A stretch of 62,954 nt of DNA from a virus (Duplodnaviria; Caudoviricetes): positions 1 to 62,954 of the IMG/VR virus record IMGVR_UViG_3300035703_000093. One strand, 5' to 3'. The position numbers and the translations under genes are program-made. Numbering within the stretch: position 1 is the first letter of the stretch; each line of letters begins with the position of its first letter. A model generated the notes under the pieces. The model saw nothing but the letters and a program-made list of their open reading frames with translations. It was not told where the DNA came from and ran no database searches. Positions 5,284-56,792 of the stretch are shown here, piece after piece.

Positions 5284-6483
5284 TCAGGCCACGGTCGCGG
5301 AGATGGCACGTTGCAAGACAGCGGCCAGTTTTGAAGCGGAGCGGTGCGTGTATCGTTCGTTTTGGCGTGCGCTGGAGTGCCCGGTGATGTCTTTGCGGAC
5401 TTCATAGGGCACGTCGGCCTCGTCGAGCAAAGTGTTCGTGGTGTGGCGGAAGCTGTGGAAGGTTTTGTTGGTGAATCCCCGCCCTTTGGAGGTGGGGTCT
5501 TTCTCGCGGCGTTCGCGCACGACGCCGGCGGCGTCCAGGATGGCGCTGAATTGCTCGCTAAGGCCCCCATTACCTCCGGTGGGCGTTCCAGCCAGGCTGG
5601 GAGCCAAAGGCACGCCTGGGCGCAAGGAAAGCGTGCGGAGATGGCTTTCCAGCGGCTCCACGATGGGGATGTGGAGGAGCTTACCGGTCTTGCCCTGTGT
5701 GTTGTGCCACACGCGGGGTTCTTTTTTGGTCGCCGCGGTGAAGTCCTCCGGCTTGGCGTCGGCGCAGTCCTGGAGGCGCTGTCCGGTGCAAATGCCCAGC
5801 AGGCAGACGGTCAGCCAGTCGGTCTGCTTCGTCCTCCGCAGGTGAGCGAGGATCTTGGCGAGATCGTCGGTGTTGAACGGCTCCCGGATGTCAGCGGTGC
5901 CATACTGGCGGAGCACCAGCTCTGCCGGATTTCGCGGGCAGAAGCCCTCCGCACGGGCTCGGTCGAAGATGGCCTGGAGCGTTTTGACGGCATTGTTGGC
6001 CGTGGCGGGCTTCCGCCCCTCGTCAATCATGTCGAAATACCATTCCTGGAGCGTGTCGCCGTCCATGAGGTTCAGCGGCCGGGTTTTGTCGGGACCAAGC
6101 CATCGGGTGAGCAGCCGGACATGGCCGGCGTAGGATTCCAGCGAGCGGGCGGCGATGCGGGACTTTTGCAGCGCCAGCCATTCGTGCGAGTATTCGTCCC
6201 ATTGACGGGTTTCCAGCACAGGGCGGTGTCCGGCGGTTTTGAGGATGTCGTTCACGACTTCGAGCACGTCCTCGCGTGTGAGGCGGACGGTGCTGCGGTC
6301 TGGTGCCACACGAAAAGCGACAGCCTGGAATTCATCGGCCACTTTCTGGGCGGTCTTCGCCTCGCTGCATTTGGTCGATTTCATCACCCTGCGCCAGCGG
6401 CCCTGGCTGGCGTCGTAAACCCAAAATTGAGCCTGCCAGAACTGACTGTTCGGGTGGTGGCGAATGGAGGCGGTGTAGTTCAT
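5284..6483 (-). CDS. int: Phage tyrosine integrase
   Basis: Complete catalytic set: TGQR, QGKTG, HSFRH, TGH, ERY. N-terminal arm-binding-like region. Adjacent to attP. Confidence 0.93.
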   Translation of the reverse strand: MNYTASIRHHPNSQFWQAQFWVYDASQGRWRRVMKSTKCSEAKTAQKVADEFQAVAFRVAPDRSTVRLTREDVLEVVNDILKTAGHRPVLETRQWDEYSHEWLALQKSRIAARSLESYAGHVRLLTRWLGPDKTRPLNLMDGDTLQEWYFDMIDEGRKPATANNAVKTLQAIFDRARAEGFCPRNPAELVLRQYGTADIREPFNTDDLAKILAHLRRTKQTDWLTVCLLGICTGQRLQDCADAKPEDFTAATKKEPRVWHNTQGKTGKLLHIPIVEPLESHLRTLSLRPGVPLAPSLAGTPTGGNGGLSEQFSAILDAAGVVRERREKDPTSKGRGFTNKTFHSFRHTTNTLLDEADVPYEVRKDITGHSSARQNERYTHRSASKLAAVLQRAISATVA

Positions 6484-19892: not shown

Positions 19893-20014
19893 GTTCTCGG
19901 TTCTCGGTTCTCGGTTCTCGGTTCTCTGTTCTCTGTTCTCGGTTCTCGGTTCTCTGTTCTCGGTTCTCTGTTCTCTGTTCTCGGTTCTCTGTTCGCGGTT
20001 CTCTGTTCGCGGTT
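19893..20014. repeat. Heptamer tandem array, about 17 units of GTTC(T/G)C(G/T)
   Basis: GTTCTCG/GTTCTCT/GTTCGCG units read directly. Shorter copies at about 13798, 25611, 26990, 30296, 36584, 37661, 39731, 42535, 42751 and 43581. Confidence 0.95.
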
Positions 20015-20016
20015 GG

Positions 20017-20784
20017 TCAGGCGGTGAGTTGCAGGATGTTGGTGGCGGTGGAGGTTTGGGCGGGAAGGTTGAGGCGGCGGCGGAGCCATTCGACGCCTTT
20101 GGGGGTGATGCGGGTTTGCGTGAAGGCGTGCTCGTGGGCCTCGCCGGTGCGGACGGTGAAGTAGCCGTCGCGCAGGTGCTCGGCGTAGGGCTGGAGGTGG
20201 CCGCCTTCGCGGAAGCAGAGGCGCTGCTTCTCAAGGCGGGTGGTGAACTGCTTCGGGGGCAGGCCGAGCAGCTTGGCCGTCTCCCGCAGGCCGAAGGTGC
20301 CCTCGGTCTGGACGTAGGACTCGACGAACTCGACGGCGGGGCGCTGGGCCTCGACCTGGAGTTTGAGGGCCTCGGCCTGCTCGCAGGAGTCGGCCAGCAG
20401 GCGGAGGGCCTCGGAGAAGGTCTTTGGCAGGTCGAAGGGCGGCGGGGGAGGGGCTGGGACGACGGTGTAGGTGCCGGTGCGGCGGAGGGTGGGGAGGACT
20501 TCACTGGTCACCCATTTGCGGAAGGTCTGGGCTTCGGGCTTGCGGGACTTGAAGACGAGAGTGTAGAGGCCGGACTCGGTTATGGTGACCACGGTTCTCT
20601 TGCCGTCGGCTGTCTCAGTAATACTTAGACCGCGCTCATCTTCGGCTAGACCTTTCGCGGCTTCGGTTGGGTTGGTAAGGCCTAAAGCGTTACATATATC
20701 GTGCATAACGAACTTGACCTGCCCGTCCTCGATGACGGTGCGGACGTTTTGCGTGCCGAAGGTGAAGGTTTGGAGGGTGGTCAT
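20017..20784 (-). CDS. Antirepressor, BRO-N + ANT/KilAC domains
   Basis: ITESGLYTLVFKSRKPEA..FRKWVTSEVLP.LRRTG.Y; LPKTFSEALRLLAD; TRITPKGVEWL. Confidence 0.92.
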   Translation of the reverse strand: MTTLQTFTFGTQNVRTVIEDGQVKFVMHDICNALGLTNPTEAAKGLAEDERGLSITETADGKRTVVTITESGLYTLVFKSRKPEAQTFRKWVTSEVLPTLRRTGTYTVVPAPPPPPFDLPKTFSEALRLLADSCEQAEALKLQVEAQRPAVEFVESYVQTEGTFGLRETAKLLGLPPKQFTTRLEKQRLCFREGGHLQPYAEHLRDGYFTVRTGEAHEHAFTQTRITPKGVEWLRRRLNLPAQTSTATNILQLTA

Positions 20785-20819
20785 GGTGCGGGTGGGGCTG
20801 GACAGGCTGGCAGCCTGTT

Positions 20820-21377
20820 TCACGCGGGGAGGTAGTGGGTGTCCCAAGGGTTGCCGTCGGCCTCGATGTTCCGCACGAGGCCGCGGTCGGTGAGGGCGTA
20901 GAGGTAATCTTGGACCTCATCGGCGGTGCGGTTGCAGTGCATGGAAACATCGTCCGGGGAGAAGCCGCCGGTGGGCTGCGGGGCGGCGTTTTTGACAAGG
21001 TGGCGCAGGGCGGCGAGAATTGATTCTTCGGCGGGCAAGAGGGCACCGTCCTTCATTTCTGCGCGGGCAGCGGTCATAGCTGCGCGGGCAGCGGTCATAG
21101 CTGCGCGGACGTAAGCGACGTAGGCGGTGAGGGCAGCTTTGGTTTCTGGGAGGTTGGGTTCAGTGAGGTTTGATTCTTCAATGGCGGTGAGACAGTTTTC
21201 CAATGCCTGTGGGTCAGCTTCCTCCAGGACGATAGGCAGCCATGCGGCGACACTGGCCAGCACATGACCAGATCTGTTATTTTTAACGAGGTAAACCGCA
21301 TGCGGCGTGCTTTGCAGGGTGTGTTCAAGGAAGGACGCGTGGTGATAATCTTCGAGGGTGGGAAGTGGGTCTTGCAT
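20820..21377 (-). CDS. Hypothetical protein with C-terminal winged helix
   Basis: EVQDYLYALTDRGLV; internal 21-bp tandem duplication at 21060-21108 (AAMTAAR x2). Confidence 0.6.
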   Translation of the reverse strand: MQDPLPTLEDYHHASFLEHTLQSTPHAVYLVKNNRSGHVLASVAAWLPIVLEEADPQALENCLTAIEESNLTEPNLPETKAALTAYVAYVRAAMTAARAAMTAARAEMKDGALLPAEESILAALRHLVKNAAPQPTGGFSPDDVSMHCNRTADEVQDYLYALTDRGLVRNIEADGNPWDTHYLPA

Positions 21378-21420
21378 GGCGGGTGTGGATTGAGGACAGG
21401 CTGGCAGCCTGTTTCACGGG

Positions 21421-21630
21421 TCAGGCGGGTTCGAGGGTGATGCCGGCGTGGGTGAGCTTGCGGCTGATGAGCTTGGCGAGCAGGCCGGCGGGGGTGGTGC
21501 GCTGGAGGTGGGCGTTGGCCTCCAGGTCGGCTCGGAGATCGGCGGGGAGGTTGCGGGTGTTGAGCTTGAGGAGGACGATGCCGTCGTCCTGGTCAGGCGG
21601 GGAGGCGGCGGGAGCGGGGTGTTTTTCCAT
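21421..21630 (-). CDS. Small RHH-like protein, first gene of the leftward operon
   Basis: LNTRNLPADLRADLEANA...TTPAGLLAKLI. Confidence 0.55.
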   Translation of the reverse strand: MEKHPAPAASPPDQDDGIVLLKLNTRNLPADLRADLEANAHLQRTTPAGLLAKLISRKLTHAGITLEPA

Positions 21631-21669
21631 GTTGCGGGTGGGTGGTTGCGGGTTCAGGGTGGGGGCGCT

Positions 21670-22017
21670 ATGAAAGACGGGATCGAGAAAATCGTCGGGG
21701 CAGTGGTTGCCATTCTGGGCGTCGCGCTTGGAGTGTTTGTGACCTTTGTGGTGTATTTACAGGCGGCCAGCGTGATGGCTGGATTTGCCGCGGCTTGCGG
21801 CATCATTTTGCTGCTGACGGTGGCGTTCTGGCCCTTGTATTTGCTGCTGGGAGTCCTGCTGAAATGTTGGGACAACCGGGAGCCTGTTGTCGAAATGCTG
21901 AGGCATTGGGCCTGGGTGGTGCAGCGGGCGCTTTTGTGGGCGCTGGGATTGTTTTTCGCCGTTCTCGTGACGTATGCCATTCTCATGGCTGTCTTTGGCT
22001 GGATTGATGGGCGGTGA
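21670..22017 (+). CDS. Membrane protein with about 3 TM helices
   Basis: Strongly hydrophobic ORF upstream of the repressor. Confidence 0.6.
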   Translation: MKDGIEKIVGAVVAILGVALGVFVTFVVYLQAASVMAGFAAACGIILLLTVAFWPLYLLLGVLLKCWDNREPVVEMLRHWAWVVQRALLWALGLFFAVLVTYAILMAVFGWIDGR

Positions 22018-22120
22018 TTTGCTGGTATGTGCATATCGTGCTGCTCTGTGTTTTTCGCACAGGCGGCTCGGGTTGGCAACTTTTATTTGCATATTCTGCG
22101 ATTTTGTGCATTTTGCACCC

Positions 22121-22738
22121 ATGACAATCGACGCAACTTCATTGAAGAGCTGGCGCGAAAGCCGAAAGCTTTCCCAGCTCGATCTTGGTGGAATGCTTGG
22201 CGTTTCACACTCGGCGGTGAACCGCTGGGAGAACGGGCAGGAGATCCCCGGACCGGTGCAGATGCTCCTGCGTCTGCTCATCCACGGCGAGATGCCGTTT
22301 GGCGGCGGGCAGGAGGACACGGTGAAGGAGGAGGCGAAGCACTTCTGGTCGCTCAAGCTGACGCTGGGGGACTGGCACAAGCTGGAAGGGTTGGCGTCCT
22401 CGGCGGGCTTTCCCACGGTGCGGGACTACCTGCTGCATCTTATCCGTGAGCATTTGGAGGAGGAAACCTCCAAAACTTTGTTTATCAGCAATAATCAAGA
22501 TGCCGATACCGTTGGAAATGAGTGCTGCCCGCCCTCGTCAAGTGTCTCGACTGCAACTTCCTGCGAAACCGGCCCCACAGCGCGATCACCCCTGGCCTCG
22601 GCTGCGCCCATTGTCCCGCTACCGACAGCGCACTGGTCCGGGACCGGCGGCGGCGCACCCGCCGCAGGCGCGGGCGGCGAAATGGCGCGGCAGGATGTGG
22701 TGTATGAGAAGCCGAGGAGGCGGCGGAAAGCGGAGTGA
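22121..22738 (+). CDS. XRE-family HTH repressor (CI-like)
   Basis: LKSWRESRKLSQLDLGGMLGVSHSAVNRWENG. Divergent from the early operon. No peptidase domain seen. Confidence 0.82.
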   Translation: MTIDATSLKSWRESRKLSQLDLGGMLGVSHSAVNRWENGQEIPGPVQMLLRLLIHGEMPFGGGQEDTVKEEAKHFWSLKLTLGDWHKLEGLASSAGFPTVRDYLLHLIREHLEEETSKTLFISNNQDADTVGNECCPPSSSVSTATSCETGPTARSPLASAAPIVPLPTAHWSGTGGGAPAAGAGGEMARQDVVYEKPRRRRKAE

Positions 22739-23013
22739 AACCTTACGCCAGACAATGCGGCGGATCTCCGCCTGAACTATCCACGCAGTCCCATGCAGGC
22801 CGTCACAGTTTGGGAATGCAAGGGCGATCACCGAACGGACGCTTCATCGCCGACAAAACTCAATACTGCGAGTCCAGGCCTGGGGCGAAAGAGAAAATAC
22901 GCAACGCCAAACGCGCCTTGAAAAAACGTGCCAGACAACAACTCAAGCGCGAAATGCTGAGTGAGAACAATCAAACTGTGCCGACCGCTGGGGCGCTCGG
23001 TGCATCCGACTAA
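22735..23013 (+). CDS. Small basic protein (distal cassette-like gene, stop codon inside attC1)
   Basis: GTGA overlap with the repressor; NAKRALKKRARQQLK. Confidence 0.6.
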   Translation: MKPYARQCGGSPPELSTQSHAGRHSLGMQGRSPNGRFIADKTQYCESRPGAKEKIRNAKRALKKRARQQLKREMLSENNQTVPTAGALGASD

Positions 23014-23062
23014 ACCCAAAAGCCCAACCGCCCCAGCGGTTGGCACCAGTGCCGGGTTTAGC
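22962..23062 (-). other. attC site 1 (101 bp)
   Basis: Minus strand: GCTAAAC-CCGGC-ACTGGTGC-...stem...-GCACAGT-TTGATT-GTTCTCA, i.e. R'', 5 nt, 8-nt L'', 7-nt L', 6 nt, R'. Confidence 0.85.
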
Positions 23063-23073
23063 CCCGAATCACT

Positions 23074-23391
23074 ATGGACCCACTAATCACAAAAATCGAA
23101 GACCTCACAGAGTTTGCCGGACTGGAGCCAGAAACGATCACGCTGCTAAAGATGGCCGCCGAAGCTCAAAGGACGGGGAAAATGCCGCCGCTACCGATCA
23201 CGACTGCACCGGAACCAACAGTGGGATGGGTAAAATCACCGCGCCGAAACGATTTGGCTGAACGACCAAGCTCACGGCACTGCCGGGGGCGGAAACCAAC
23301 CTCAAACACACTGACTCTATGGCTAAGAAAAAAGCATCCAAAACACCCAGCGCCCCGGCAGTTGACCGTGCAGTGCCTGGTTCGCGCTTGA
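23074..23391 (+). CDS. Cassette E hypothetical protein (reads through attC2)
   Basis: ATG 12 nt after attC1; the C-terminal part is encoded by attC2. Confidence 0.5.
   Translation: MDPLITKIEDLTEFAGLEPETITLLKMAAEAQRTGKMPPLPITTAPEPTVGWVKSPRRNDLAERPSSRHCRGRKPTSNTLTLWLRKKHPKHPAPRQLTVQCLVRA
23257..23386 (-). other. attC site 2 (130 bp)
   Basis: Minus strand: CGCGAAC-CAGGC-ACTGCACG-...CTGCCGGGG/CCCCGGCAG...-CGTGAGC-TTGGTC-GTTCAGC. Confidence 0.88.
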
Positions 23392-23567
23392 TGCGAGTGT
23401 CTGACTTTGAGAACGCTTGCTCCGCTGATCTGAACTGCGACCTGTGGGATGGCTCGCTAAATGCACAGTATGGAGGTAAGATCACGCTGGCTGTGTCGGA
23501 GATGCGATACATCGCAAACGCCTTGCGCTTCATGCAGGGTAGAAGGCAACGCACATGCCTAGACTGA
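23319..23567 (+). CDS. Cassette D hypothetical protein (start inside attC2)
   Basis: MAKKKASK...; AVDRAVPGSR is encoded by the attC arm. Confidence 0.6.
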   Translation: MAKKKASKTPSAPAVDRAVPGSRLMRVSDFENACSADLNCDLWDGSLNAQYGGKITLAVSEMRYIANALRFMQGRRQRTCLD

Positions 23568-23568
23568 G

Positions 23569-23662
23569 CGCGAACGCGGAGGTAAACCAGCCATGAGCGC
23601 CTTTGATATTGACCCTGTGACAGCCCTGCCGCGAATGGCTTGGCTTCACCGTTTTGTTCAGG
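23569..23662 (-). other. attC site 3 (94 bp)
   Basis: Minus strand: CCTGAAC-AAAAC-GGTGAAGC-...AGCCAT/ATGGCT...-GTTTACC-TCCGC-GTTCGCG. Confidence 0.8.
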
Positions 23663-23895
23663 CTTTTCGGGCGTGGAGGCGTGGACGGCTGGAGAGACGA
23701 GCAGTTGCCATCGGAGCCAGATTGGAGCGCATCGAAATAGCTCGCGAGGTGATGAAGATATTTGGAGAAGATGCACTCAAGATCGGCTCGGGCTTTATTG
23801 TCGAGATCATCATGGATAGAATGGAGGCCGAGCGTTCCGAACATGGCCGCCTCAGTAACGAACTCGCACAGATCGAGAAAAGCCTGAACCGATAA
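23593..23895 (+). CDS. Cassette C hypothetical helical protein (start in attC3, stop in attC4)
   Basis: 100-aa ORF filling the cassette. Confidence 0.65.
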   Translation: MSAFDIDPVTALPRMAWLHRFVQAFRAWRRGRLERRAVAIGARLERIEIAREVMKIFGEDALKIGSGFIVEIIMDRMEAERSEHGRLSNELAQIEKSLNR

Positions 23896-24020
23896 AACGC
23901 AGCAACCCCATAGGGCATAAACACGATGGACTCTCCACTACCAACACCCGCCGCCGAAGCGGCAGACTCTCAACCTCCGACAGACGGCCCTATGGGGGTG
24001 GCTGCCGTGCCGTGTTCTGC
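23883..24020 (-). other. attC site 4 (138 bp)
   Basis: Minus strand: GCAGAAC-ACGGC-ACGGCAGC-...CCCCATAGGGC/GCCCTATGGGG...-GCTGCGT-TTTATCG-GTTCAGG. Confidence 0.85.
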
Positions 24021-24207
24021 GTTGGACGCGCTCGACTACGCAATTTACACCTGCAACAATAGGGCGGGAAGCCTGCGTCACGTTGCTTACAACGCAGCGT
24101 GTCACGACATCATTTGTTTTCTTGAGGCGGCAAAGGGTCGCCTCTTGGATGGCGGAGAATTATACGATTATGCGGTTACGCAGAACGACAAGGCTGAGGC
24201 ACCGTAG
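23926..24207 (+). CDS. Cassette B hypothetical protein (start in attC4, stop in attC5)
   Basis: 93-aa ORF filling the cassette. Confidence 0.62.
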   Translation: MDSPLPTPAAEAADSQPPTDGPMGVAAVPCSALDALDYAIYTCNNRAGSLRHVAYNAACHDIICFLEAAKGRLLDGGELYDYAVTQNDKAEAP

Positions 24208-24231
24208 GTTGCCTCCAGCCGCTAGTTCTCA
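24180..24231 (-). other. attC site 5 (52 bp)
   Basis: Minus strand: TGAGAAC-TAGCG-GCTGGAGG-CAACCTACGGTG-CCTCAGC-CTTGTC-GTTCTGC. Confidence 0.85.
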
Positions 24232-24273
24232 TTCCGTGGTCTATGTCGCCGAAAAATAATTTCACTTTGGCCG

Positions 24274-24302
24274 TTGAAAACCTAGCTAGGTTGTGGTTTA
24301 AT
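24274..24302 (+). promoter_or_regulatory. Sigma70-type promoter with palindromic operator
   Basis: TTGAAA-17 nt-TTTAAT with extended -10 TG. Perfect palindrome AACCTAGCTAGGTT (24279-24292) in the spacer. Confidence 0.7.
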
Positions 24303-24367
24303 GGTCGTGTTCTCAATCGAGGACACCGCGCCGGGCGGTTCCCGGCCACTGCTCAAAGCACACTGAC

Positions 24368-25087
24368 ATGAAACACACCATCGAAATCCGCAACGGCTCC
24401 GGCTGGAACAACTATGCTGGCCTCAAAGACCTCAAATCCCTGCCCGCAGGCACCAAGGGGTTGATGAAGAAAAACGGCGTCGCTGAAATCCACATCGGCC
24501 CCGCCGATGATGAAAAACCATTCGGAGTCGCCGCTCGCTATTACGACGCAGACGGCGAAATGATCTGGGAGCAATCGTTTGGCGAAGACAGTTCAGCAAG
24601 CTGGATCAGGAGCCGAGTGACCGCGCTGCTTGAAGAAACAATCAGCGTCCGCCGTGAAAAAGTCCGCGCTGAACGTGCGGCGGAGGCACTCAAGAAAGCC
24701 AACGCAGCAGGCTTCGCGACCGCAAAAGAACACAGCGATCATCTCGCTGCGATGGCGGCCGAGTCGAAAGCAAAAGCAGCAGCAGAACGTGATGCCCGTT
24801 GGGCATGGCTCAAGGGCGAAAATGGCGGACAAGAAGCCGCCGCTGCGGCTCTTGAGAAAATGCGTGAACTGCGCAAAGCCTGCCCGCAAGCCGACGGCAT
24901 GACTCGCGGCGGCAAGCTCGGTAAGCTCATCAATCCTGCCTCCCCATCGGGAGGGTGGGCCGAAGTGTTCGAGGCTTTCGTGATCGACAACGAAACCCGC
25001 AGCAATGGAATGCTCGCATGGCTGCTGCAAAACGGCCACCGCGCCGGTCTCGATGACCGTCATTTCTTCTTCGTCGCAGCCGCATGA
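24368..25087 (+). CDS. Cassette A hypothetical protein
   Basis: 239-aa ORF with A/C-rich codon usage distinct from the phage backbone. Confidence 0.75.
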   Translation: MKHTIEIRNGSGWNNYAGLKDLKSLPAGTKGLMKKNGVAEIHIGPADDEKPFGVAARYYDADGEMIWEQSFGEDSSASWIRSRVTALLEETISVRREKVRAERAAEALKKANAAGFATAKEHSDHLAAMAAESKAKAAAERDARWAWLKGENGGQEAAAAALEKMRELRKACPQADGMTRGGKLGKLINPASPSGGWAEVFEAFVIDNETRSNGMLAWLLQNGHRAGLDDRHFFFVAAA

Positions 25088-25263
25088 AACGTGAATCTCT
25101 CGAACTCCAAGAATCAGACTGGCAGCGGCTCACGGAAGTGGCCGCTGCCACGTCGTCAATTTACTCCGACCGGCCATCATGGCGCAGGCTCATCCTGCGC
25201 ATCGCTCGCGGCGAAGTCCGCTGCTCGGAAGCGCCGAAGGCCAAGAAGCGCCCGAAGGAATGA
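25084..25263 (+). CDS. Cassette A small RHH-like protein (59 aa; not in ORF track)
   Basis: ATGA overlap; MKRESLELQESDWQRLTEVAAATSSIYSDRPSWRRLILRIARGEVRC...; its stop TGA is the first 3 nt of the att box. Confidence 0.65.
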   Translation: MKRESLELQESDWQRLTEVAAATSSIYSDRPSWRRLILRIARGEVRCSEAPKAKKRPKE

Positions 25264-25290
25264 GAACACTGATTCTCAAACAAAAGTCGC
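25261..25290 (-). other. Putative attI
   Basis: Minus strand TTGAGAA-TCAGT-GTTCTCA, with no attC hairpin, 36 nt from the intI start. Its R box is complementary to R'' of attC5. Confidence 0.7.
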
Positions 25291-25302
25291 CGATTAACCC
25301 CG

Positions 25303-25599
25303 ATGAAAACGCGCTCTCCATCCGCTCGTGCTACATTGCAAAAATGCGTCGATCTCCTTCGCAGGAAGCATTACGCGCTCACCACGGAACAGAGTTACTG
25401 TCAGCACATTGGTTCGTATATTGACTGGCTGCGTGATGTGCAGGAACTGCTGGGCCACGCCATCCTGAACACGACGATGATCTACGTCCATGGCGACGGC
25501 GAACGGGTGAGGAGTCCGCTGTCTGCGATGCCGCTGCCTGCCAACGTGGTGCCGTTTGAGTCGCAACAGTCGCAACAAAACCTGGGGAGGGTTGCGTGA
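25303..25599 (+). pseudogene. intI: Internally deleted integron integrase (98-aa open frame)
   Basis: IntI N-terminal motif LRRKHYALTTEQSY joined in frame to the C-terminal RDVQELLGH...TTMIY.H....VRSPL. The central catalytic domain is missing. Confidence 0.88.
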
Positions 25600-25645
25600 T
25601 GGAAACGCCAGTTCTCAGTTCTCAGTTTCCTGCTAACGAATCATC

Positions 25646-26071
25646 ATGAAAGCCCGAGCCGCCATTTGGAAAACACTGGTCGATGAATGCCTGGACAAGG
25701 GGATGTCCCTGCGGGCGACGGCGGCGTTTCTGGCGCTGCCGGTGGGGACGGTGAAGACCTGGAGGCATCGGCAGAGGAAGCAGGCGGACAAGAGTGTCCG
25801 CGTTTCCATGAAACCAGCGATGAAACCGGCTCCTGCGAAGGAGAGGGCCACGGCCATGAAACCAGGCATGAAACCGGGGGTGCATCGCGGGCTGACGGTG
25901 GAGATGATGCCGGGGCGGACGGGGTGGGAGCGGCGGATGACGTGGAGCCTGTTTAGGCGCGGGGAGTGGCCGCCGAAGGAGTGGCGCATTCCGGCGGATT
26001 TGGAAGGCCCGGCGCTGGCGTCGGCGCTGGGGGAGAGGGCGTTCAAGAGCAAACCGAGGGGGGAGGCGTGA
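25646..26071 (+). CDS. HTH protein with MKP repeats
   Basis: GMSLRATAAFLALPVGTVKTWRHR; ATGAAACC repeated 4 times. Confidence 0.6.
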   Translation: MKARAAIWKTLVDECLDKGMSLRATAAFLALPVGTVKTWRHRQRKQADKSVRVSMKPAMKPAPAKERATAMKPGMKPGVHRGLTVEMMPGRTGWERRMTWSLFRRGEWPPKEWRIPADLEGPALASALGERAFKSKPRGEA

Positions 26072-26496
26072 GTTTGGAGTTTCAAGTTTCAAGTTTCACG
26101 TTGGAAGCCGGGCCGGAGAGGCCGGTGGTGCCGGGGTGTGTGGAGATGGCGAAGTTGCCGAAGACGCGGCAGGTGGTGCGGCGGCCGATGACGGCGGACG
26201 AGGCGGAGATGGTGAAGGCCATCCGGCGCTGCGTGACGTTTTCGGTGGGGCACTGGGACAAGAAATTCATGCGGCAACTGCCGGAGGAGATCACGGAAAA
26301 GCAGGCGGTGCAGGTGTGGCGCATTTTCAGAACCTACCGGCGGCAGATCGTGACGAAGGTGCCGGAGGCGGTGATGACGTGGGAGCGGAAGGAGGAGCTG
26401 CTGCGGGCGGCGGAGGTGGTGGTGGAGGCATTTCAAGCAGAGGGACTGGACACCGCGAGAGGTGGGATAACCGCAGAGAAGAAGGAGCCTTTATGA
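26068..26496 (+). CDS. Hypothetical protein
   Basis: GTGA overlap (alternative ATG at 26146); DKKFMRQL...ITEKQ...YRRQI. Confidence 0.6.
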   Translation: MSLEFQVSSFTLEAGPERPVVPGCVEMAKLPKTRQVVRRPMTADEAEMVKAIRRCVTFSVGHWDKKFMRQLPEEITEKQAVQVWRIFRTYRRQIVTKVPEAVMTWERKEELLRAAEVVVEAFQAEGLDTARGGITAEKKEPL

Positions 26497-26798
26497 GCAC
26501 GAATGTGGCCTTGAAATACCTTCGTGACAAAGAGTGGGCGATGGGCAATGGACAGTGTCATGACTGCTGCGGAAAACAGCCGCGAAAGGGTTGGTGGACT
26601 GACACCGTTGGGCACCGCCGCGGATGTGCTCTTGCCCTCGCGATTGAATCTTTGGGTGCTACCGTGGTGTGGGAGCGAGAAAACCGCTCTAAGGCGCGGC
26701 TGGAGCATGAAAGGTGGGGTAAGCAGATGTTCCGAGAAATCATGAAAGGTGTGATGGAAGAACTGAAAACTAAAAATGGAGGAACTGAGAATGGCTGA
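26493..26798 (+). CDS. Hypothetical Zn-binding protein
   Basis: CHDC...GHRRGC; ATGA overlap. Confidence 0.6.
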   Translation: MSTNVALKYLRDKEWAMGNGQCHDCCGKQPRKGWWTDTVGHRRGCALALAIESLGATVVWERENRSKARLEHERWGKQMFREIMKGVMEELKTKNGGTENG

Positions 26799-26831
26799 GA
26801 CGGACCAGACACCGGGAGGGACGGGATTGAC

Positions 26832-27383
26832 ATGAGTAACCGGATTGACGGGGAATCCCCTGCCCTGCGGCTGTGGCTGCCGGGGTATCATACGCCGTCG
26901 TTGAACCGGACGGCGGGAAAGCACTGGGCGAAGGTGCGGCGGCTGCGGCTGGAAACGGCGGAGGCGCTGTATGAGGCGCTGCGGGGCGGGTTCTCGGTTC
27001 TCGGTTCGCGGTTCGCGGTTGAGGAGGCGCGGAGGGTGTTGTCGAAGATGCTGCTCAAGGTGCCGCTGGAGACGCGGCGGGGCAAGAAGCCGGACAAGCC
27101 CCTGGTGCCGGCGTATCTGCGCATTGAGCGGGTGGCGTGCGTGCTCCTCGATGAGGAAAACTTCAAGGGCGGCACGAAGGGCCTGACGGATCTGCTGCGC
27201 TACGCGTTTCCCACGGTGCTGCTGGACGACGGGCCGGGGTATGTGGTGATGGAGCACGTCCAGACCAAGTGCTCGAAGCGGTGCGAGGAGGGGACGTGGG
27301 TGGAGCTGAGGCTGGGGAAGGCGGAGAACGAAGGGCGGAGGGCGGAGGGGATGTCGGCGGCGGTCATGGGCGGTGGAGGATGA
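26832..27383 (+). CDS. RusA-like Holliday junction resolvase/endonuclease
   Basis: PSLNR; LDEENFKGGTKGLTDLL; LLDDGP. In-frame heptamer insert at about 26990-27020. Confidence 0.65.
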   Translation: MSNRIDGESPALRLWLPGYHTPSLNRTAGKHWAKVRRLRLETAEALYEALRGGFSVLGSRFAVEEARRVLSKMLLKVPLETRRGKKPDKPLVPAYLRIERVACVLLDEENFKGGTKGLTDLLRYAFPTVLLDDGPGYVVMEHVQTKCSKRCEEGTWVELRLGKAENEGRRAEGMSAAVMGGGG

Positions 27384-27570
27384 GGGTGGTGCCGGGGGTG
27401 TTGAGGAGGTCGAGGAGGGATTGGAGGCGTTTGGCGCGAGCCTGAACGGCGGCTTGGGTGAAGGGGGGAGCATCCCACAAGGCCGCGCTGGCTTCGTTGG
27501 CAGCTTGGACTGCGGAGGTCACGGCACCAGTGATGTCGGTGCGCTGTTCGGGGGTGAGTTCGAGGGTCAT
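27364..27570 (-). CDS. Hypothetical protein
   Basis: 68-aa ORF, MTLELTPEQR... Confidence 0.5.
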   Translation of the reverse strand: MTLELTPEQRTDITGAVTSAVQAANEASAALWDAPPFTQAAVQARAKRLQSLLDLLNTPGTTLILHRP

Positions 27571-29148: not shown

Positions 29149-32100
29149 TCACAGGCTGGCAGCCTGTCTCACGAGGAGAGGGGCGCGTTGTTTGATGCGC
29201 TGGAACTCCTGAAGGGCGTTTTCGAAGGCGGCGCGGGCCTCGCCGGTGAGGGAGGCGCGGAACATGGATTGAGCGTCTTGAGCTGAAATGCCTTTGCGCT
29301 TGATTCCACCGACTACCATCAAAGGATTGCGGTAGAAGAGGAGCTTGTTGATGTCCTGCTCGGTGCGGACGGGGTGGCCCATTTTTTCGAGTGATCCAAG
29401 GATGTTTTTGATCGCTTTAAGGTTTGGTTCGTCCTGCGCGAGCTGGGCAAAGAGGGCCTTGCGGGCGCGGGAGGCGGGCGTTGTTGAGCCGTAGTCCATG
29501 CCTTCCTGCACTTCTCCTCCTTGGGCGATGATCCAATCGTGGGCTTTGCGGTAGAGGTCCGGGGTGGCGTTCTTGACGTTGAGGCCGACGACGGCGCGGG
29601 TGAAGGCCTGGGCGGGGTCGTAGGTTTCGAGGGTCTTGTTCGTGGCGCGGTCGCCGGCACGCATGAGGGTGTTGAAGGCGGTGCCACCGGGGGCGAGGGG
29701 TGGCAGGGCGACGCCGGCGGCGTGCTTGGTGTAGGCTTTGATCTTCTCGAGCGGCGTCATGCCGAACTCGGCGATGGGGCGGCGGGTGAAGGCGTCCTCG
29801 TTGTGCCTCCAGGCATCGACCAGGGAGAGCACGGGGCCGCCGGAGACGATGCCGCGCCAGAAGCGGTTCCACGGGTCCTCGGTGGCATCGGTGACGGCGA
29901 CGCGGGTGCCGAGGAGATCGGCGAAGGGCATGATGGCGGAGATGTCGAACTGCTGGACGGCCCCTTGGGCGCTGCGGAAGGGCAGCAGCATGGAGAACAG
30001 CGGGGTGTCAAAGGCGAAGAGCTTCCCCTTCCCTGCCATGTCTTTCTGGATTTCCTCCATGTCGTCGTCATCGAGGCCGAGCAGCATGGCGGAGATCGCG
30101 GTCACGATGGCCGGGAAGCTGAGGGCTGCGGTGAGGGCGAGCGGGCGCTCGGCGACGGCGGTGCCGAGGATGCGGGTGGACTCGCGGAAGAAGGAGAAGA
30201 ACGGGTTCACGAAGCGGCCGACGGCGCGGGTGGTGCCGGACTGGCCGAGGCGGTCGTAGTAGGGGAACCATTTCCGCACATGTTCCGCTGCGCGGGTTCT
30301 CTGTTCGCTGTTCTCGGTTCCCTGTTCAGCGAGTTCGGCCTTAGCTTTGAAGTAGGCGGCGGCTTTGAAGAGGTCGTCGGGGAGGCGGCGGAGGCTGGCG
30401 AGGAACTCGTGGGAGCCGTGGAGGGTGGCACCAAAGCCGAAGAGCATGCGCTGGACGAGGCCGGGGTCGTAGTCCTCGATGGTCTTGGGGTCGGGCAGGA
30501 GGCCTTTCAGGCGCTCCTTCACGAGGCCGGTGTAGGCGTCGCCACCGATGACCTGCTGTTCGATGAGTTCGGCGAAGTCTTTGCCCCCGGTGCGGAGGGC
30601 GGCGATGGCCTGCTGGTAGTAGGGCCAGTTGCCGGGGTTCCAGAGGCTGTTGCCGGCGAGGGTGGCGAACATGGTGTTGCCGACGGCGTCGCGGATGTGG
30701 GAGCCGGGGTTCCAGACGAGTTTCCCAGCCTTCCACTTGCGCAGGATGGCGTCGTAGAACTGGAGCGCGGCGTTTGGCACATCGACGAGGTCGAGGATCT
30801 GCGCGGCGATGTCCTTGCGGACGTGCTTGCCGGCGAGAGGGCCGAAGCGGGAGGCGTCGGGAATGGCGGTGAAGCCGTTGAGGGCGATGTCGCTCACCCA
30901 TTCGGGGTGCTGGGCGGTTTTGCGCAGCAGCTCCATGGTGGCGGCGTTGTGGGTCTGGCCGAGGACGTAGCGGGCAACGGCATAGACGGGGTCCTTCACG
31001 AGTTTGGCGGGCTCGAAGGGGTCCTTCGGCAGGAAGCGGTCGTATTGGTGCTTCTTGGCCTGCTTCACGATGCCGGCGAGCATGGGGGAGAGCTTCGCGG
31101 TGTTGGCGATCTGGTCCACGGTGAGGGACTTGATCTGGTCGCGCATCGAGGCGCGTTCGGAGCGCGAGAGCGGGGCGAGCATGTCGGCCACGGTCTTGTC
31201 GCCACGGTCCTGGAGCATGTTCAGCGTCTGCTGGCGCACGAAGTCGTGGTAGAAGGCGTCGCGGGAGGCGGCGTCGCGGAAGCGCCAGCGGTTGCGTTTG
31301 CCGCCCTCGTCGCGGGAGACAGTCACATACTGGCCGGTCTTGTCCTTCCGGGTGGTATCGACGATGTGGTAGGCGGTGGAGCGCTGCTGGAGGAGATCGC
31401 GCACGCCGAGCTTGAACGCGGCGAGGAAGGAGCCGGCGGACTCGCGGGCCTCGTCCTCGGTGTAACGGGGCATCCAGCCGTTCGACTGGAGTTCCTCGAA
31501 GGTGTCCGGGTTCATGAGGCCCTGGCGCACGAGTTCGGAGCCGGTCTGGCGGAGGAGATCGCGCAGGCGCTCCCCGAGGCGCTGCATTTCCGGCGGCAGT
31601 GTGGCCATGGGGACGCGGCCCTCCATGGCATCGAAGAGCTGGGCGCGGGCGGCGGGGTTCTCGGCGAACTCCTTCGGGTAGGCGAGATCGGAGAGGCGGG
31701 GATTGCCGGAGAGGGCGCGGATGAGGTCGTTCGCCGTCTCCTGGCCGTGGGCGGATTTGCGCTGCATCTCGTGGTGCAGGGCGAGCCATTCACGGGGCAG
31801 GAGGGCGGTGGGGAGGACTTGATCGACGAGGCCTTTGATGGACGGGGCGAGGCCGTCCGGCTTGTCGAGCCAGGTTTCGACGGCAGCTTTGGCGCTGCGG
31901 AGCTTGGGGCCGGCGAGCTTGTCGAGCTGGGCGGCGAGGCGTTTGTCGAGGTTGTTCGAGCCGAAGGTGGCGAGGGGTTGCTGGATGCCGAGGGCGTCGG
32001 CAAGGTAGCCGTTCACGCGCAAGGGCACGAGAGGTGCCTGGACGAGGCCTTTGATGACCTTTGAGGCCAGTGCGCCCGTGAGATCGACGGCTTTGCCGGC

Positions 32101-35100
32101 GAGGTCGAGGGACTGGGCGGCACCGGGGACGGTGAGGAGTTTGCGGTCGAGGGCGACGGCTGTTTCGGCGATTTCGCGAGCGTTGGGAGTGGCGGCTCCG
32201 ATGGCGGTGCCGATTGTGCCGCCGATGGCTGCACCGGGGGCTCCTGCGACCAAAGCGCCTGCGCCTGCGCCGATGCCGCCCCCGATGAGGGCACCGCTGG
32301 TGGTGTTTTTGAGGCGGTTGGAGGCGTAGAGAACGCCTGTCAGTCCGTCGGGCAGGCCTTCTCGGCTTCCAATCTGAGAAAGTAAACCCTCAGATTCGCC
32401 TCTTTGAAATGTTTCAAGCGCGGATGCCGTGACGATTGCTCTTTGAAGCGTTGCCAGTCCAATTCCAGATGTGTCGGGATGGGCGTCAAGGACCGCACGC
32501 TCGATTTGCTGCTGCCCCACGGGCTGTCCGGTGCTGTCGATGAACTCGTCACGAGTGAAATCGTAGCGCCAGTTCCGGGCTTCCGCAACCGCCTTGAAAG
32601 CGTTGTCCATCTCCTTGGTCAAAAGCGCGGCGGTGTTGATGGCGGCATTTTTCCCCCACGGCACCTTCTGGCGGTCGTGAGGTTTGAGGTGCTTGGTGGT
32701 GCCGTGGCGCAACGCACTGCTGGCAAAATTCGACGTGCGGCGGATGGCGTTGATGCTGGTAAGCCCGCCCGGATCGTCTTTGATGCGTTTGCCGTTGTTG
32801 TGAATCCAATCCAGCGCTGCCTGGTAAATTTGCGCTCCTCCCCCGCCTTTTTTGCCTTTGGATTCGGCCGCAGTGCTGCGGATGTAGGGGCGGTCAGTGT
32901 CGGCATCATGGATGTCCAAGTAGCCGTTTTTGCCGTGAAAACGCACGGTGTCACCCTGACTCGCGGCCGTGACGAGCTTGCCTGGAATCGACACCGCCTC
33001 AGCGATTTTGCTGGCGCTGGCGTTGCTGGTGCGTCCGTATTGGAATGCCTCATCATGGGCCGCCAGAGCACGCCAGACCTTGGCGACAAACGTGCGGGCC
33101 GGAGCGCGGGCTTCTTCGTCACGCTGATCCAGAATGTCCTGCCACCAAGACGCCGTGCCCATCGGCTGGGCGGGCGTGTTGGGTGGGAACCACTGCGGCA
33201 GCCAGCGGCGGTTGAGTGCGTCCATGTCCTCCTGCTGCTGGCTGGCCTCTTGCTGGAGAAATTCCAGCGCCAGTCGGGATGACTGCTTTTCCATGCGCTC
33301 CTGAACCACCTCGGAAGAATAGATGTCAACATCCGCCCCCAATTTGATCAGCTTGAGGCGTTTTTCCAAGTGTTCACCCCAGCCATTGATCTCGTTGGGT
33401 GTTACGAAAGACAGTAGCTCTAGCGCCCTGTTGAGATACTTTTGGAACTGCTCATCAAGCAGTGTTTGCGGGTAGATGTTTGAGGCGGCTCCTTGGTCAA
33501 TGAGGGCGGCACGGGCGGCTTTTCTTGAATCTAAAACTTCAGCGGCTTTGTTAGCCGTTGGGTGGATGCCATATGAAAGAAGCGACTCATTCGCCAGCCG
33601 CTTCAACTGGTTGTTTTTGTCGATCTTGCTGCGGATTTCCTGAAGTGCTGGCGTTCCGTTGAGGAACCATTGTTGATCCTGCGGTAAATCGTCATGCGTG
33701 CCGCCGTTCCTCTGGAGTTTTTCCAAAAATGTCCGCATGGCAGGCAGCGCCTCCTGCTGGAGCTTGGCACGGCGCTGTTTTTCAGCATCTTGTTCAGCTT
33801 GGAGACTGGCTTGTTTCGCCTGAGCGTCGGACAATGCCGACTCGTTTTTCTTGATGCGCGTCTCGATCTGCCAGCGGGCCGCTTGGCCGGTGTCTCCCAC
33901 GGTTTCACCGCCGCCGTCATACCTGGACCCCAGCACGGGCACGGTGCGGTTTTCGGTGGCAGAACCGATCTGGAAACCCACGATCTCCACCTTGTCACCT
34001 GCGGCTTTTCGCAGATCCTTGATCATGTCCGCCATGTAGCCGGAGCGCGTGTCCGGGCCGTCGCTGAAGTCGATGCCTGGCAGGTTTTCCACCGCCAAAC
34101 CCGTCGCCACATGGCCGGGCTGCTGCGGCTGGGCCAGGAACCGCAGGAGTCCAAGTTCCTCATAGTCGTCATTTTGCGGCGGGCGTGGTGGCAGAGCGCG
34201 GGCGCGGCGACTCCAGAAGTTCAGCAGAGCGGTGCGGGGGTTGGTGTAATTGCTGCTGGTTTGCCGCTCTCCAGCGGAGTTCTCGACCCGAAACTCACCG
34301 CGCTCTGTGCGGCCCATTTTGAAACCTTCGGGTAGATCTGGAAGTTTTTGGTAGGTTACAACAAATTCAGCCGCATTCATCTTGATCCGGTCACCGGCCT
34401 TATTGACCACAATGACCGCATTGATAGGCTCGTTGTGGTTGAGGTAATAGCCGGTGCGACTATGGGGTAGCGAGCGAGTGAGAGCCGCCTTATCGGCAGC
34501 AATGGACTCAATCAGTCCTGACACCTTGCGCTGAACAGAACTGATTTCATCCCGCTGGCTCTGGGATGTGAAGGGGTTTGTCATTGACCACCAATCGGCA
34601 ATTTTGGCAGCCGCGTCAGAATCCAATTGCGGAAGCGCTTCAGTTGGTTTATTATTCCCCGTCGCAGCGACAACATCCTCTGCCAGGGAGGATTCTCCGC
34701 TCCCCTCAATCTGGTTTGGGGAGCGGCCCCGTTGAAGCAATGACATGGGCTGGTTCGCCAACTCACTCTGCGACATCTCCCCGCCCTGGGAAACTGGGGC
34801 GGGGTTTTTTGTGCGTCCGGCGCTGGCAAGCAAAACCGGCTTGTCGTGGGGGCTGGTGGGTTGGGGCAGCGTCTTGGCGAGTTTTTCGATCTGCTCCTTG
34901 GTGACGGGCTGGGTGGTGTCGTGGGTGGTGAGCCAGTGTTTGAAGACGGGGATCGTGGTGGGGATGGCGCTTTGCAGGCCTTTCCAGCCTTTGGTGTAGC
35001 TGGCCATGTAGCCGCGGGCGGCTTCGGCGGGGGTGTTGAAGCCGAGCATGACCTTGTGCTCGTCGAAGTGGCCGTTGCCGGGTTTGCGCTGGTTCACGAT

Positions 35101-38100
35101 CAGCACAAGCTGGGAGTCGGGGTTCGGGCCGAGGAAGAAGTCGAGGTGGCCTTTGTCGCGGCCCACGGTGCCGAGGATGCGGCCGTAGTGATGCGGCAGG
35201 GTGACGGACCAGGGCTTGCCGGTGGCGTCGGTGCCGCTGCGGGTGCTGCCGGCGGGGTTTTCGATGCTGAGGCGCAGGCCGTGGACGTCCACCTTGCCGG
35301 TTTTGTAGTTCTCGGCGTCCTTCTGGGGCTGGGTGGGGTTGGTGTTTGTCGCTGCTGCCGCAGCGGCCACTTGCGTGGCGAGATCGGAGCGGACAGGAGT
35401 GTCCGCGCCCCCTTGGCGGTCGGAGGCGGCGAGAGGGGAGCGCTCGGTGGCGAGGCGTTCAAAGGTGGCGCGGAGGGCTCCGGTGGGGTGGAGGATGATG
35501 TTGTCGAAGACGCGGAGGAATGTGCCGTTGTCCTGGGTGATGGCGTTTTCGGTGTGGAGGTCGAGGACGGCGAGGTTGTCTGCCGGGCGGTAGTAGGCGG
35601 AGGGGGGATCAAGTTGGATGAAGCCTGCGGCTTCCATGGCGGGCTTGATGGCGGTTTCCTGCGCGGCGTATGCGCCCTGGTAGTGCGGCTGGGAGGTGAT
35701 GAGGGCGACGTTGCCGACGCGATCCGCCCAGACGGCGTGGAGGACGATGTCGTCGTGGAAGATGCTGTTGTGGAGCAGCAGCTTTTCGAGGTAGGAGGCG
35801 GCGTCCGCGCCTTCGCGGGCGATGTCCCATTCATCACGGTAGTCGCGGGGCTGGTAGCCGTAGGAGGTGCCGTCTCCACGGGTGATTTTCACCCAGCGGC
35901 CTTCCTGGTCGCGGAAAACGTGGTGTTCAGAGCCGCCTTTGTCGAGGGGACCGTCGAGGTCGTAGCGGGAGGGTGGGTCTGTGATGAGGATGCCGGCGGC
36001 GCGTGCCCAGTCGGTCAGGAGGGCTTTGTCGCGGCGGCGGTCTGCTGCTCTTCGAGCTGCCGCATCCGGCGCAGATGATCCGCCTGTGCGTTGGCTTCGG
36101 CGGAGGTGTGAGAGGAGAGCCGGGAGTTGAGCGCGGCTGCTTCCTGCCTGGTCGGCAGGCGGGGTTTCGGCGATGGGGCGGCGTTTTCCATGGAGGTAGG
36201 CATCTATCGCATGAATGCGGGTTTCTTCCAGTGCTTTAGCTTCGGGCGTGGAGAAAGGTGGCTCGGTGATGCGGGCGCTGGAGGCGAGGGGGACCATCAT
36301 ATCGGTGGACATGATGCCGGAGGCGTTGCGGAGTTTGAAGGGGCCGGCGGCGGCGACGGTGGCGGCGGACTCGGGCGGGGAGAGGAGGACGGCGCCGGTG
36401 TCGTCGCCTTCCTTCACGCCGCGCATGAAGGCGGCGGGGGTGACGGCGGGGTTTTGGGCGTGGAACTGGTTCCACACGGCGCGGATGGGGAGCCACTGCG
36501 AGGACTGGCCGCGCAAGGCGGACTGGTAGGCGCGGGAGATGAGGACCGGGGTGACGGGAATGAGGGCGGTGAGGCCCTGGCCGGTTTGCGGTTCGCGGTT
36601 CGCGGTTCTCTGTTCGCGGTTGCGGAAGAACGCGGCGCTGGAGCCGAGGGTGGTGGGCGTGAGAGCGCGGTCGAGCGGGAAGCGCTGGGAGGCGAAGAGG
36701 GCCTGGCCGGCGAGGGCGGAGTCGCGCATCTGGTGGGTGATGCGGATGAGGTGGATGGGGGTTTCGGAAGCAGGGAGACTTGAAGACGGGGAGACAGGCG
36801 GAGTGGTGGGGTTGTCGAGTTCTTCCTGGAGGCGAATCTGAGCGCGTTGTTGAGACGGGTATTGACCGAAGACGCCGTTGGGGAATTCAATGCCCCACGT
36901 TCCGGGCTGCATTTGGACAACGCCAATTGGGGGGCCTTGGGGCTGGGAGTCGGAGGTGGCACGCTGTTTTGCGGTGATGCTGCTGCTTTCCACGGTGCCG
37001 CCCCAGGGTTTGACGTATTTGGCGAACTCTTTGACGAGGATGTCGTCGTAGAATTTGCGCATGCCCTGGCCGCCGACGCGGAGGTCGAGGCCGGTGTAGT
37101 TTACGACGCGAGAGGGTGAGGCGAATCGGAGGTCGCTGACGATGCGTTCGGCGAGTTCTTTGCCAACGATTTCCGGCAGTTCCTCGGCGGTGAAGGCTTC
37201 CTTGGGCAGCCGCACTTCGTGGTCGTTTTTATCGAGGACGGCGATCTCGTAGCGTGTCTGGTCGAACTTCTTGGCGTCGATGCGTTTGACCTGCTTGCTG
37301 AGGTCGTAGCGGTCGGCCTGGGTGTCGCCGGTGGTCCAGCCGATCCACTGCTTGCCGGACTGGACGGCATCGAGCAGGGCGCGTTTGAAGAGCATCAGGG
37401 GCCAGGAGGCGCGGTAGGGGGCGTCGGGGACTTTGGCTGCTTCTTCGGGCGATGCGGGCACGGTGCCGCCAAACACACCGGGGACCGTCTGCATGGTGTC
37501 CCGGTAACCCTTGTCCCGGCCCATCTGGTGCCATTTGGACTGGAATTCTTCGACGAGGAGGCCGTTGCCGGCGGCATTGGTGCGGTCGGTGGTGCGATAC
37601 CAGGCGAGTGCGTCGAGATCGCCGTAGTGGGTGCGGTCGGTGTCGAGGTTGGGGGAGTTGGTTCTCGGTTCGCTGTTCTCGGTTCGCGGTTGGTTCCAGG
37701 TGATGACGACTTCCTGGGGATTGGTACCGCCGGGGAGGGTCAACTGGGTGTTGCGGGTGGTGGACTGCATGCCGCCGGGGTTCACGCGGTTGTAGCCGTC
37801 GTTCATGTCGGCAACGGTTTCCTGGGCGGAGGCTTCGGTGGGCTCCCAAATGACGAATTCGCCGGCGGGATTGATGACGTCGAAGCCTTGGCCGTTGCGC
37901 TCCGGGCGCAGGGTGGGGCGATAGGTGAAGCGGTCGCTCAGGTTGCCGAAGCGGGTGACGGTGAACTTCACGCTGCCTTCGGTGGCGAGGTAGGCGAGGA
38001 CCTGGTCCTGGGTGATGGGGCCGTCCTGGGCCTGGGACTGGAGCCACTGGCGGATGCCGGTCCATTTCATCTCCTCTTCTTTGAGTCCGGCGTTTTTGAG

Positions 38101-54724: not shown

Positions 54725-54819
54725 GCCGGTCACGGTGGGTGGCAGAATGACGAATTGGCAAGCGGGTTTTGTTGCGATGTTGGGGGAAATGGGGTAGGGT
54801 GGGACGATAAAGGCCGCAG

Positions 54820-55014: not shown

Positions 55015-55222
55015 CGGTGCCGTTTGCGTATAGAAATTCCAGTCTTGGATTTTGGCCTGATAGCAGCGAAAATGTCGCATGACTCCCCGCCGCTCCGGGC
55101 AGTTCCTTCCCGCCGTGTGAGCCACGTAAAAGCAGAGACCCCCGCGACTACTACCAACCAGGACAGGAAGAAAGGAAATCGCGGAGGTCTCAGGGAGGGA
55201 ACCCTCACCAAAACTCAAACAT

Positions 55223-55455: not shown

Positions 55456-55458
55456 GTT

Positions 55459-56788: not shown

Positions 56789-56792
56789 GGCC

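Follow-up and report, generated by a model that had tools for sequence, protein, structure and literature searches.

The window analysed here, a complete IMG/VR virus record of 62,954 bp (IMGVR_UViG_3300035703_000093; CheckV rating, complete), very probably carries a true integron inside the genome of a temperate phage. The element is a block of about 2.8 kb, at roughly 22.74–25.57 kb, which lies between a repressor-like gene and an early helix-turn-helix (HTH) gene and consists of an array of five attC sites with their cassettes, an attI site and a deleted integrase gene, intI (Table 1). The integron now appears to be decaying, and this copy would be unable to recombine alone. An earlier account made from the letters alone (the sequence-only reading) had proposed this intI–attI–attC layout in a phage beside the repressor/antirepressor region, and the layout is fully supported by what follows, including its cassette sizes of 295, 312, 314, 297 and 1081 bp.

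The open reading frame (ORF) at the right end of the block, previously called an intI remnant, does align to both ends of integron integrases, and its sequence indicates descent from one of these enzymes and not from another tyrosine recombinase. TIGR02249 is its best model, although the score of 36.4 bits lies far below the cut-off of 265; the rest of the record holds no other integron-integrase match. We found 29 longer relatives of 176–366 aa. When TIGR02249 was run on the eight of 333–366 aa, seven exceeded the curated cut-off and the eighth scored 259.3 against 265. In alignments with these full-size proteins, residues 1–43 of the remnant correspond to their N termini and residues 44–98 to their C termini, at 68–79% identity, with about 247 residues absent between the retained ends. 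Set against the intact gene of a related locus, L133, the deletion joint falls at 25430/25431 and about 741 bp are lost, in frame. In relatives, the deleted stretches carry what we take to be the first Arg, the Lys and the His-x-x-Arg motifs. Because some 247 codons are gone, including those for most catalytic residues, the integrase of the window should be incapable of driving recombination in cis, and from its sequence it cannot be an active recombinase. The intact intI of a complete integron is absent from the window.

One could still suppose that the integron remains active for this phage, with the 98-aa product or the array shuffling cassettes in cis. The frame is kept across the deletion, the C-terminal segment retains the catalytic tyrosine motif, and the attC and attI sites appear intact. 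However, a kept frame is explicable by a one-in-three chance, only 34 residues match TIGR02249, and the stretches carrying the motifs named above are missing, so we consider continued activity in cis very unlikely. The proposal that cassette recombination serves to acquire and shuffle small genes holds for the lineage, whose members are found in differing states, and fails for the copy in the window, given the loss from its integrase.

The intact relatives form a clade with 62–82% identity (BLAST) among seven related viral and metagenomic loci, four of which have homologues of the window's phage backbone genes beside intI. On this sequence evidence the clade is found mainly on phage-like contigs. 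Among 185,579 species genomes (one per species), the best IntI matches reach 46–51% identity only and come mostly from metagenome-assembled genomes of Verrucomicrobiota, which hints at the host phylum.

The five attC sites lie on the minus strand at exactly the positions first proposed, clustered in 1.3 kb, and share one anatomy: R'' (xxxxAAC), 5 nt, an L'' box of 8 nt, an imperfect stem, a variable loop, an L' box of 7 nt, 5–7 nt and R' (GTTCxxx). The fourth base of L'' is an unpaired G in all five. The L boxes pair in every site at six or seven of seven positions, and since they do so despite having five different sequences, their pairing covaries. A strict scan for GAAC/GTTC boxes on both strands of the window gave six matches, four of them sites of the array, against a mean of 1.39 and a maximum of 5 in 100 dinucleotide shuffles; a looser AAC/GTT scan gave 17 against 10.4 expected and included all five. 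We also built a covariance model (R1) from 50 attC sites that lie beside integrase genes at 21 other viral loci, none from the window, after removing 11 of 61 candidates (six duplicates and five that were far from an array or atypical). With filters off, the six best R1 matches in the window are the five sites and a lone site at 55900–55953, all on the minus strand (E 1e-8 to 8.3e-4), and the seventh has an E-value of 0.46; attC 4 is found only with filters off. One attC of another locus, L006, is 76% identical to attC 1. With at least two nearby attC sites and an adjacent intI that is a deletion remnant, the array is a cluster of attC sites lacking integron integrases (CALIN), a category that was reportedly defined by Cury et al. 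in 2016 with IntegronFinder.

In integron arrays, the R'' box of each attC complements the R' box that precedes its cassette. This chaining is present at every junction of the block, the attI junction included, with 7 of 7 positions matching at four of the five and 6 of 7 at the other (Table 1). The chance of each perfect match is about 1 in 64, given the common GAAC/GTTC core, and L004 and L006 are chained likewise. As had been noted, no hairpin follows the GTT box next to intI. The box complements the R'' of the nearest attC exactly. It also marks the start of a conserved attI. When the sequences upstream of intI from the window, L133, L134, L005 and L006 are aligned, the conserved part begins precisely with the GAAC box; the preceding three nucleotides differ among loci and, in all three loci whose first attC was read (the window, L005 and L006), they are those of R'' of that locus's own first attC. 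The L133 contig starts exactly at the attI crossover point. This is how a junction made by attI × attC recombination would be expected to look, and it places a predicted attI, with its crossover at G|TT, next to the 5' end of intI.

Such chaining bears directly on whether the hairpins could be ordinary intergenic terminators or REP-like repeats that resemble attC by coincidence. A terminator-like scan of 21400–26200 does return 11 sites against 5.0 expected, two of them within attC 1 and attC 2, and plus-strand ORFs stop at or in the sites. Neither terminators nor repeats account for the chained 7-nt complementarity, the fixed position of the bulge, the covariance-model scores, the adjacent attI and intI remnant, or the homologous attC sites beside an intact intI in L006, and we find coincidence hardly credible.

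Table 1. Coordinates of the integron block, its cassette ORFs and other features of the window. R''/R' chaining gives the match of R'' to the R' box preceding its cassette; L gives paired positions of the L boxes.
Feature	Position	Strand	Details
Whole inserted block (cassette array, attI, deleted intI)	22739–25568		Missing from L002 and L003 (blastn)
attC 1 (array end)	22962–23062	-	R'' GCTAAAC, R' GTTCTCA; chaining GTTCAGC to GCTAAAC, 6/7; L 7/7; R1 40.1 bits, E 1.2e-7; fold z -4.8
attC 2	23257–23386	-	R'' CGCGAAC, R' GTTCAGC; chaining GTTCGCG to CGCGAAC, 7/7; L 6/7; R1 38.4 bits, E 3.2e-7; fold z -0.85
attC 3	23569–23662	-	R'' CCTGAAC, R' GTTCGCG; chaining GTTCAGG to CCTGAAC, 7/7; L 6/7; R1 44.6 bits, E 1e-8; fold z +0.34
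attC 4, long loop	23883–24020	-	R'' GCAGAAC, R' GTTCAGG; chaining GTTCTGC to GCAGAAC, 7/7; L 7/7; R1 24.2 bits, E 8.3e-4; fold z -1.7
attC 5, 52 nt, attC of first cassette	24180–24231	-	R'' TGAGAAC, R' GTTCTGC; chaining GTTCTCA (hairpin-less box) to TGAGAAC, 7/7; L 7/7; R1 31.3 bits, E 1.7e-5; fold z -2.6
attI	25261–25302	-	Crossover box GTTCTCA at 25267–25261, no hairpin after; then, toward intI, sequence conserved in L133, L134, L005 and L006
Deleted intI, 98 aa	25303–25599	+	Best model TIGR02249, E 3.7e-9; last 37 model positions only
Cassette adjoining attI, 1081 bp	24186–25265	-	Two plus-strand ORFs: 24368–25087 (239 aa) and 25084–25263 (59 aa)
Cassette ORF, 93 aa	23926–24207	+	Start in attC 4 loop, stop in attC 5
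Cassette ORF, 100 aa	23593–23895	+	Start in attC 3 loop
Cassette ORF, 82 aa	23319–23567	+	Alternative start 23391, just past attC 2
ORF of uncertain reality, 105 aa	23074–23391	+	Start 12 nt past attC 1, runs through attC 2; no family match
Lone attC, second docking site	55900–55953	-	R1 27.1 bits, E 1.6e-4
Repressor-like HTH protein, left flank, phage backbone	21974–22738	+	PF01381 HTH_3, E 1.1e-8; homologues in L002, L003 and L004
Small HTH protein, right flank, phage backbone	25646–26071	+	Weak HTH_28 match; homologues in L133 and L004
Tyrosine integrase of phage	5284–6483	-	
Bro-N/KilAC antirepressor	20017–20847	-	
SU10-type portal	52535–54838	-	
tRNA-Pro	55223–55296		One in window; within variable segment downstream of portal gene

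The geometry of the block is that of known mobile integrons. In a class 1 control (L052, plasmid NZ_CP126340.1), all four attC sites have the same layout, R''-5-L'' (8 nt, fourth base unpaired)...L' (7 nt)-5/6-R', and lie on the strand opposite intI1. At 207 loci with IntI relatives, sites with perfect L boxes lie opposite the intI strand in 230 cases and on the same strand in 26. From this split and the control, we conclude that the window follows the canonical geometry: the order is intI, attI, array, the attC top strand is opposite intI, and neighbouring R boxes are complementary, as in class 1. It differs from class 1 in that R' reads GTTC... where the control has GTTA..., and in that its cassette genes are not on the top strand, as those of class 1 are, but on the other one. 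IntI identity between the two is only about 40%. The opposite polarity, in which the plus strand would be the top strand and each ORF would be followed by its own attC, was also considered. We infer that it can be rejected, as a GAA|C box has the conserved attI on its intI side; AAC triplets that occur only on the plus strand of attI disfavour it too, as do the start signals in attC loops, which would then serve the neighbouring cassette.

Several lines of evidence place the block inside the phage genome proper and not in flanking host DNA. Between about 5 and 54 kb, the plus strand is rich in G and T whatever the gene direction (GC skew about +0.3, AT skew about -0.2), and the sole interruption of this asymmetry is at 22–26 kb, where the GC skew is about 0.03 and the GC content 0.58 against about 0.63 elsewhere. 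The block is on these grounds compositionally foreign within a temperate-looking phage. That composition, and the fact that metagenomic contigs can be chimeric, might suggest that integron DNA of a host chromosome became attached to phage DNA through mis-assembly, or that a prophage call was extended too far. Yet both flanks are phage backbone common to four relatives (L002, L003, L004 and L133), and integron parts are present in three relatives, either at this backbone site or at a second one. Both borders are spanned, at about 200x, in the output of an independent assembler, and in a record rated complete the phage integrase is some 16–22 kb away from the block and the portal gene about 27 kb away. 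A host origin by such errors therefore seems most improbable. The left border of the block can be placed only within 22647–22962; the right border is marked by a perfect 9-nt direct duplication (AGTCGCAAC twice, 25559–25577), located at the junction of the intI remnant's 3' end with sequence that integron-less relatives also have. L133 has one copy of it.

Contigs also bear on the concern over a chimeric assembly, raised at the outset. In the probable source sample, one Logan contig of 5080 bp covers 21800–26479 with zero differences at about 200x, and a second sample of the same study yields an identical 159-nt contig across the intI deletion joint. In a freshwater metagenome from another study, low-depth contigs (2–9x) match 24376–25270 at about 98% and then continue into 152 unrelated letters, and other pieces end at 23263 or start at 24183 and 22971, within about 5 nt of predicted cassette borders. 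This is suggestive of the window's cassettes occurring in other contexts. Our read-level evidence comes from contigs only, which cannot reveal cassette circles; run X4 and most of X2 and X3 covered small parts only, and their uncovered parts are uninformative. One X1 contig, in which 23687 and 26079 were linked through 37 other letters, was not corroborated in the joint listing and was disregarded.

Comparison of the window with other loci by ORF-level blastp, together with blastn, shows that gene order at this site is not fixed among relatives. L002 (genome G002), with a portal protein 89% identical to that of the window, and the more distant L003 both have an empty site between the repressor-like and HTH genes: by blastn, window segments 22028–22647 and 25876–26095 are about 400 bp apart in them. 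L133, 87.6% identical over 2.6 kb of a giant backbone gene, has an intact intI at the same position as the window. The more distant L004 has five chained attC sites at this site, no trace of intI and cassettes unrelated to those of the window. From the intact intI, different cassettes or empty site in these relatives we conclude that cassette gain and loss did happen in the window's phage group, as far as its sequences record it.

A second docking site for the integron lies after the portal gene. In the window, the lone attC stands there at the edge of a variable segment, 54839–55953, which also has small ORFs. The G002 backbone resumes at the base that follows this attC in the window (position 5462 of L213 corresponds to 55954), and at this site G002 has two weak attC matches together with a C-terminal remnant of intI, 86 aa long. 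In both L134 and L136, an intact intI precedes a homologue of the window gene at 56724–58751. A further IMG/VR record, G001 (92% complete), with a distant portal homologue and a giant-gene homologue, has an intact intI and 13 or more attC sites, including one with 76% identity to attC 1. A blastn search of 21400–27400 against 50,697 GenBank phage records gave no match.

Credible cassette genes are found on the plus strand, the bottom strand that is recombined, and are co-directional with intI. We consider plus-strand genes credible because the 239-aa and 82-aa ORFs have homologues and because the L006 array has plus-strand ORFs that, judged by eye, resemble DNA methyltransferases and an HTH protein. 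The 239-aa protein has ten homologues, eight full length at 56–94% identity and two partial at 54%, and none of its relatives was found in the viral contigs searched. The 82-aa ORF has 20 homologues at E<=1e-3, the best of which is 70% identical from residue 1, while several short ones begin near residue 25. A search for homologues of the 100-aa ORF recovered only itself. By tblastn, eight plus-strand ORFs (seven in the cassette block and one beside the lone attC) had no match in L002–L051 or in the 207 loci, and six minus-strand ORFs of the cassette region had none in the 207 loci. Several long attC loops, in the window, L005, L006, L007 and L009, hold a Shine–Dalgarno-like motif and an ATG on the plus strand; in attC 3 these are GGAGG and ATG. 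Across 60 other loci, calling orientation by the longest ORF gave 97 cassettes co-directional with intI, 143 opposite and 81 undecided. Since high G+C gives spurious ORFs, we limit the claim on orientation to the window, L004 and L006.

Some cassette features recur elsewhere. The left arm of attC 5 is identical over 20 nt to that of a G002 attC (L213 3863–3925), although the phages and docking sites differ, and this common arm encodes the C-terminal NDKAEA of two otherwise unrelated ORFs, the 93-aa ORF and one of G002. Separately, a 15-nt A/T-rich motif lies just past the short first attC in the window (24250–24264) and in L006 (9416–9430); among 215 loci (L001 being the window's own piece), only these two first cassettes have it, and it may be a cassette-internal promoter or operator. 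We also observed that the core of the 82-aa protein (about residues 20–80) occurs as 2 to 13 repeats in the proteins P0044, P0050 and P0059, of 1225–1689 aa, as an unnamed repeat domain.

The history that would fit the block best starts with an integron integrase inserting circular cassettes at attI, with the crossover at 25265/25266. Repeated insertion would have built the five-cassette array with its classical attC geometry and its class 1-like polarity toward intI, and an in-frame deletion of 741 bp would later have taken out the catalytic core of intI. The cassettes would now be moron-like accessory genes, and phage transcription presumably covers their plus-strand ORFs, which are co-directional with the flanking early genes and intI. 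An IntI supplied by a host or by a co-infecting relative could still move the cassettes in trans.

A number of observations weigh against a true integron whose cassettes carry genes in this way. The unpaired L'' base on the top strand is C in all four class 1 sites and G in all five window sites, G being also the base in 150 of the 230 perfect-L-box sites opposite intI. The R1 training sites were chosen by our own AAC-5-L''...GTT pattern, so that the model is not fully independent of it. Folding of the minus strand yields whole-site energies no better than those of shuffles for attC 2 and attC 3 (Table 1); folding energy by itself is weak evidence for attC sites. The spanning Logan contig probably comes from the record's own sample and is not independent. 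As for the genes, no cassette ORF received a function from Pfam, NCBIfam, PHROGs, PADLOC or a protein atlas. Cassette genes usually have the other orientation, to which these ORFs are antisense, and some of them extend 5 to about 130 nt beyond the predicted border of the cassette. Finally, a sigma-70-like promoter scan of 21400–26200 found 0 against 1.3 expected, a scan that may not suit the host, and the cassette ORFs face away from the direction of the Pc promoter.

It is possible, although we stop somewhat short of favouring the idea, that integrons are a resident, lineage-specific gene-exchange system of a group of temperate phages that bear giant genes, probably phages of Verrucomicrobiota. 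The platform would sit at two conserved backbone sites. Its cassette genes would lie on the recombined strand, have their start codon and ribosome-binding site within the attC loop, and be expressed by phage read-through in place of the Pc promoter.

Other features of the genome are noted here for completeness. The giant gene is a single ORF at 29149–49038 (minus strand) for a phage protein of 6629 aa, with a coding-like GC3 of 0.80; its ends have homologues in L133 (88%), L004 (61%) and G001 (50%). Tandem arrays of 7-nt units (GTTCTCG, GTTCGCG, GTTTCAG, GTTCCAA and GAATGAG) occur at many sites in the window, for example at 19893–20014, 25609–25627, 26078–26102, 26989–27020, 36582–36625 and 43582–43619. 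These units are similar to the R boxes of attC but without hairpins. The pattern GTTCTCRGTTCTC, allowing at most one mismatch, has 25 matches against 0.16 expected, and all 25 matches of this GTTCTC type lie on the plus strand regardless of gene strand. One window protein has a weak, sub-threshold match to a CHAP domain. A RusA-like label considered for the 183-aa ORF at 26832–27383 was dropped, as there is no Pfam match.

Phage integrons as a kind have already been published. In the part of the study drawn on here, Qi et al. (2023; PMC9892861; Front Microbiol 14:1091391) reported three complete integrons, one In0 element and 17 CALINs from 10,705 phage genomes, and demonstrated that attC sites of phages undergo recombination with IntI1. 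The remark in the sequence-only reading that integrons are rare in phages needs updating in the light of these counts. According to the same part of that paper, the complete cases are either fragments of integrons from host chromosomes, captured at the ends of prophages, or class 1 integrons carried by P1. As in those genomes, we find intI, attI and attC cassettes inside phage genomes, along with integrase-less attC clusters, and the cassettes described there include DNA methyltransferases, which the ORFs of the L006 array resemble by eye. Unlike the complete cases described in that part, the platform of the window occupies conserved sites in the interior of the backbone and is seen again in several uncultivated relatives. 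Our literature search surfaced no other paper focused on phage-borne integrons.

The block also invites comparison with two other classes of element. Integrase pseudogenes beside arrays are a known state, and the window resembles CALINs and decayed sedentary integrons in that two or more attC sites lie together and no functional integrase is close to them; it differs from them in that the array is in a virus and not a bacterial chromosome and in that the pseudogene is a clean in-frame internal deletion. Like phage morons, the cassettes are small accessory genes of foreign composition, located between repressor-like and early genes and variable among close relatives. Unlike morons, their means of insertion, site-specific attI × attC recombination, can be read from the sequence of the window.

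To the known kind of phage-borne integron, the window and its relatives add recurrence within a single phage lineage, where two sites of the backbone are used and four states are represented (intact, integrase-deleted, integrase-less and empty). They also add an IntI clade found mainly on phage-like contigs, a reversed gene orientation and a different unpaired base. Integrons are the best understood bacterial gene-capture machine, and their cassettes are known to store phage-defence genes. The findings mean that phages can carry cassettes from host to host and can also put the platform to use for accessory genes of their own. The element in the window is itself a fossil, dependent on an integrase supplied in trans. 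Its relatives supply attC, attI and IntI parts from a poorly studied clade that differs from the class 1 textbook case, and together they form a natural series for how a phage gains, uses and loses an integron.

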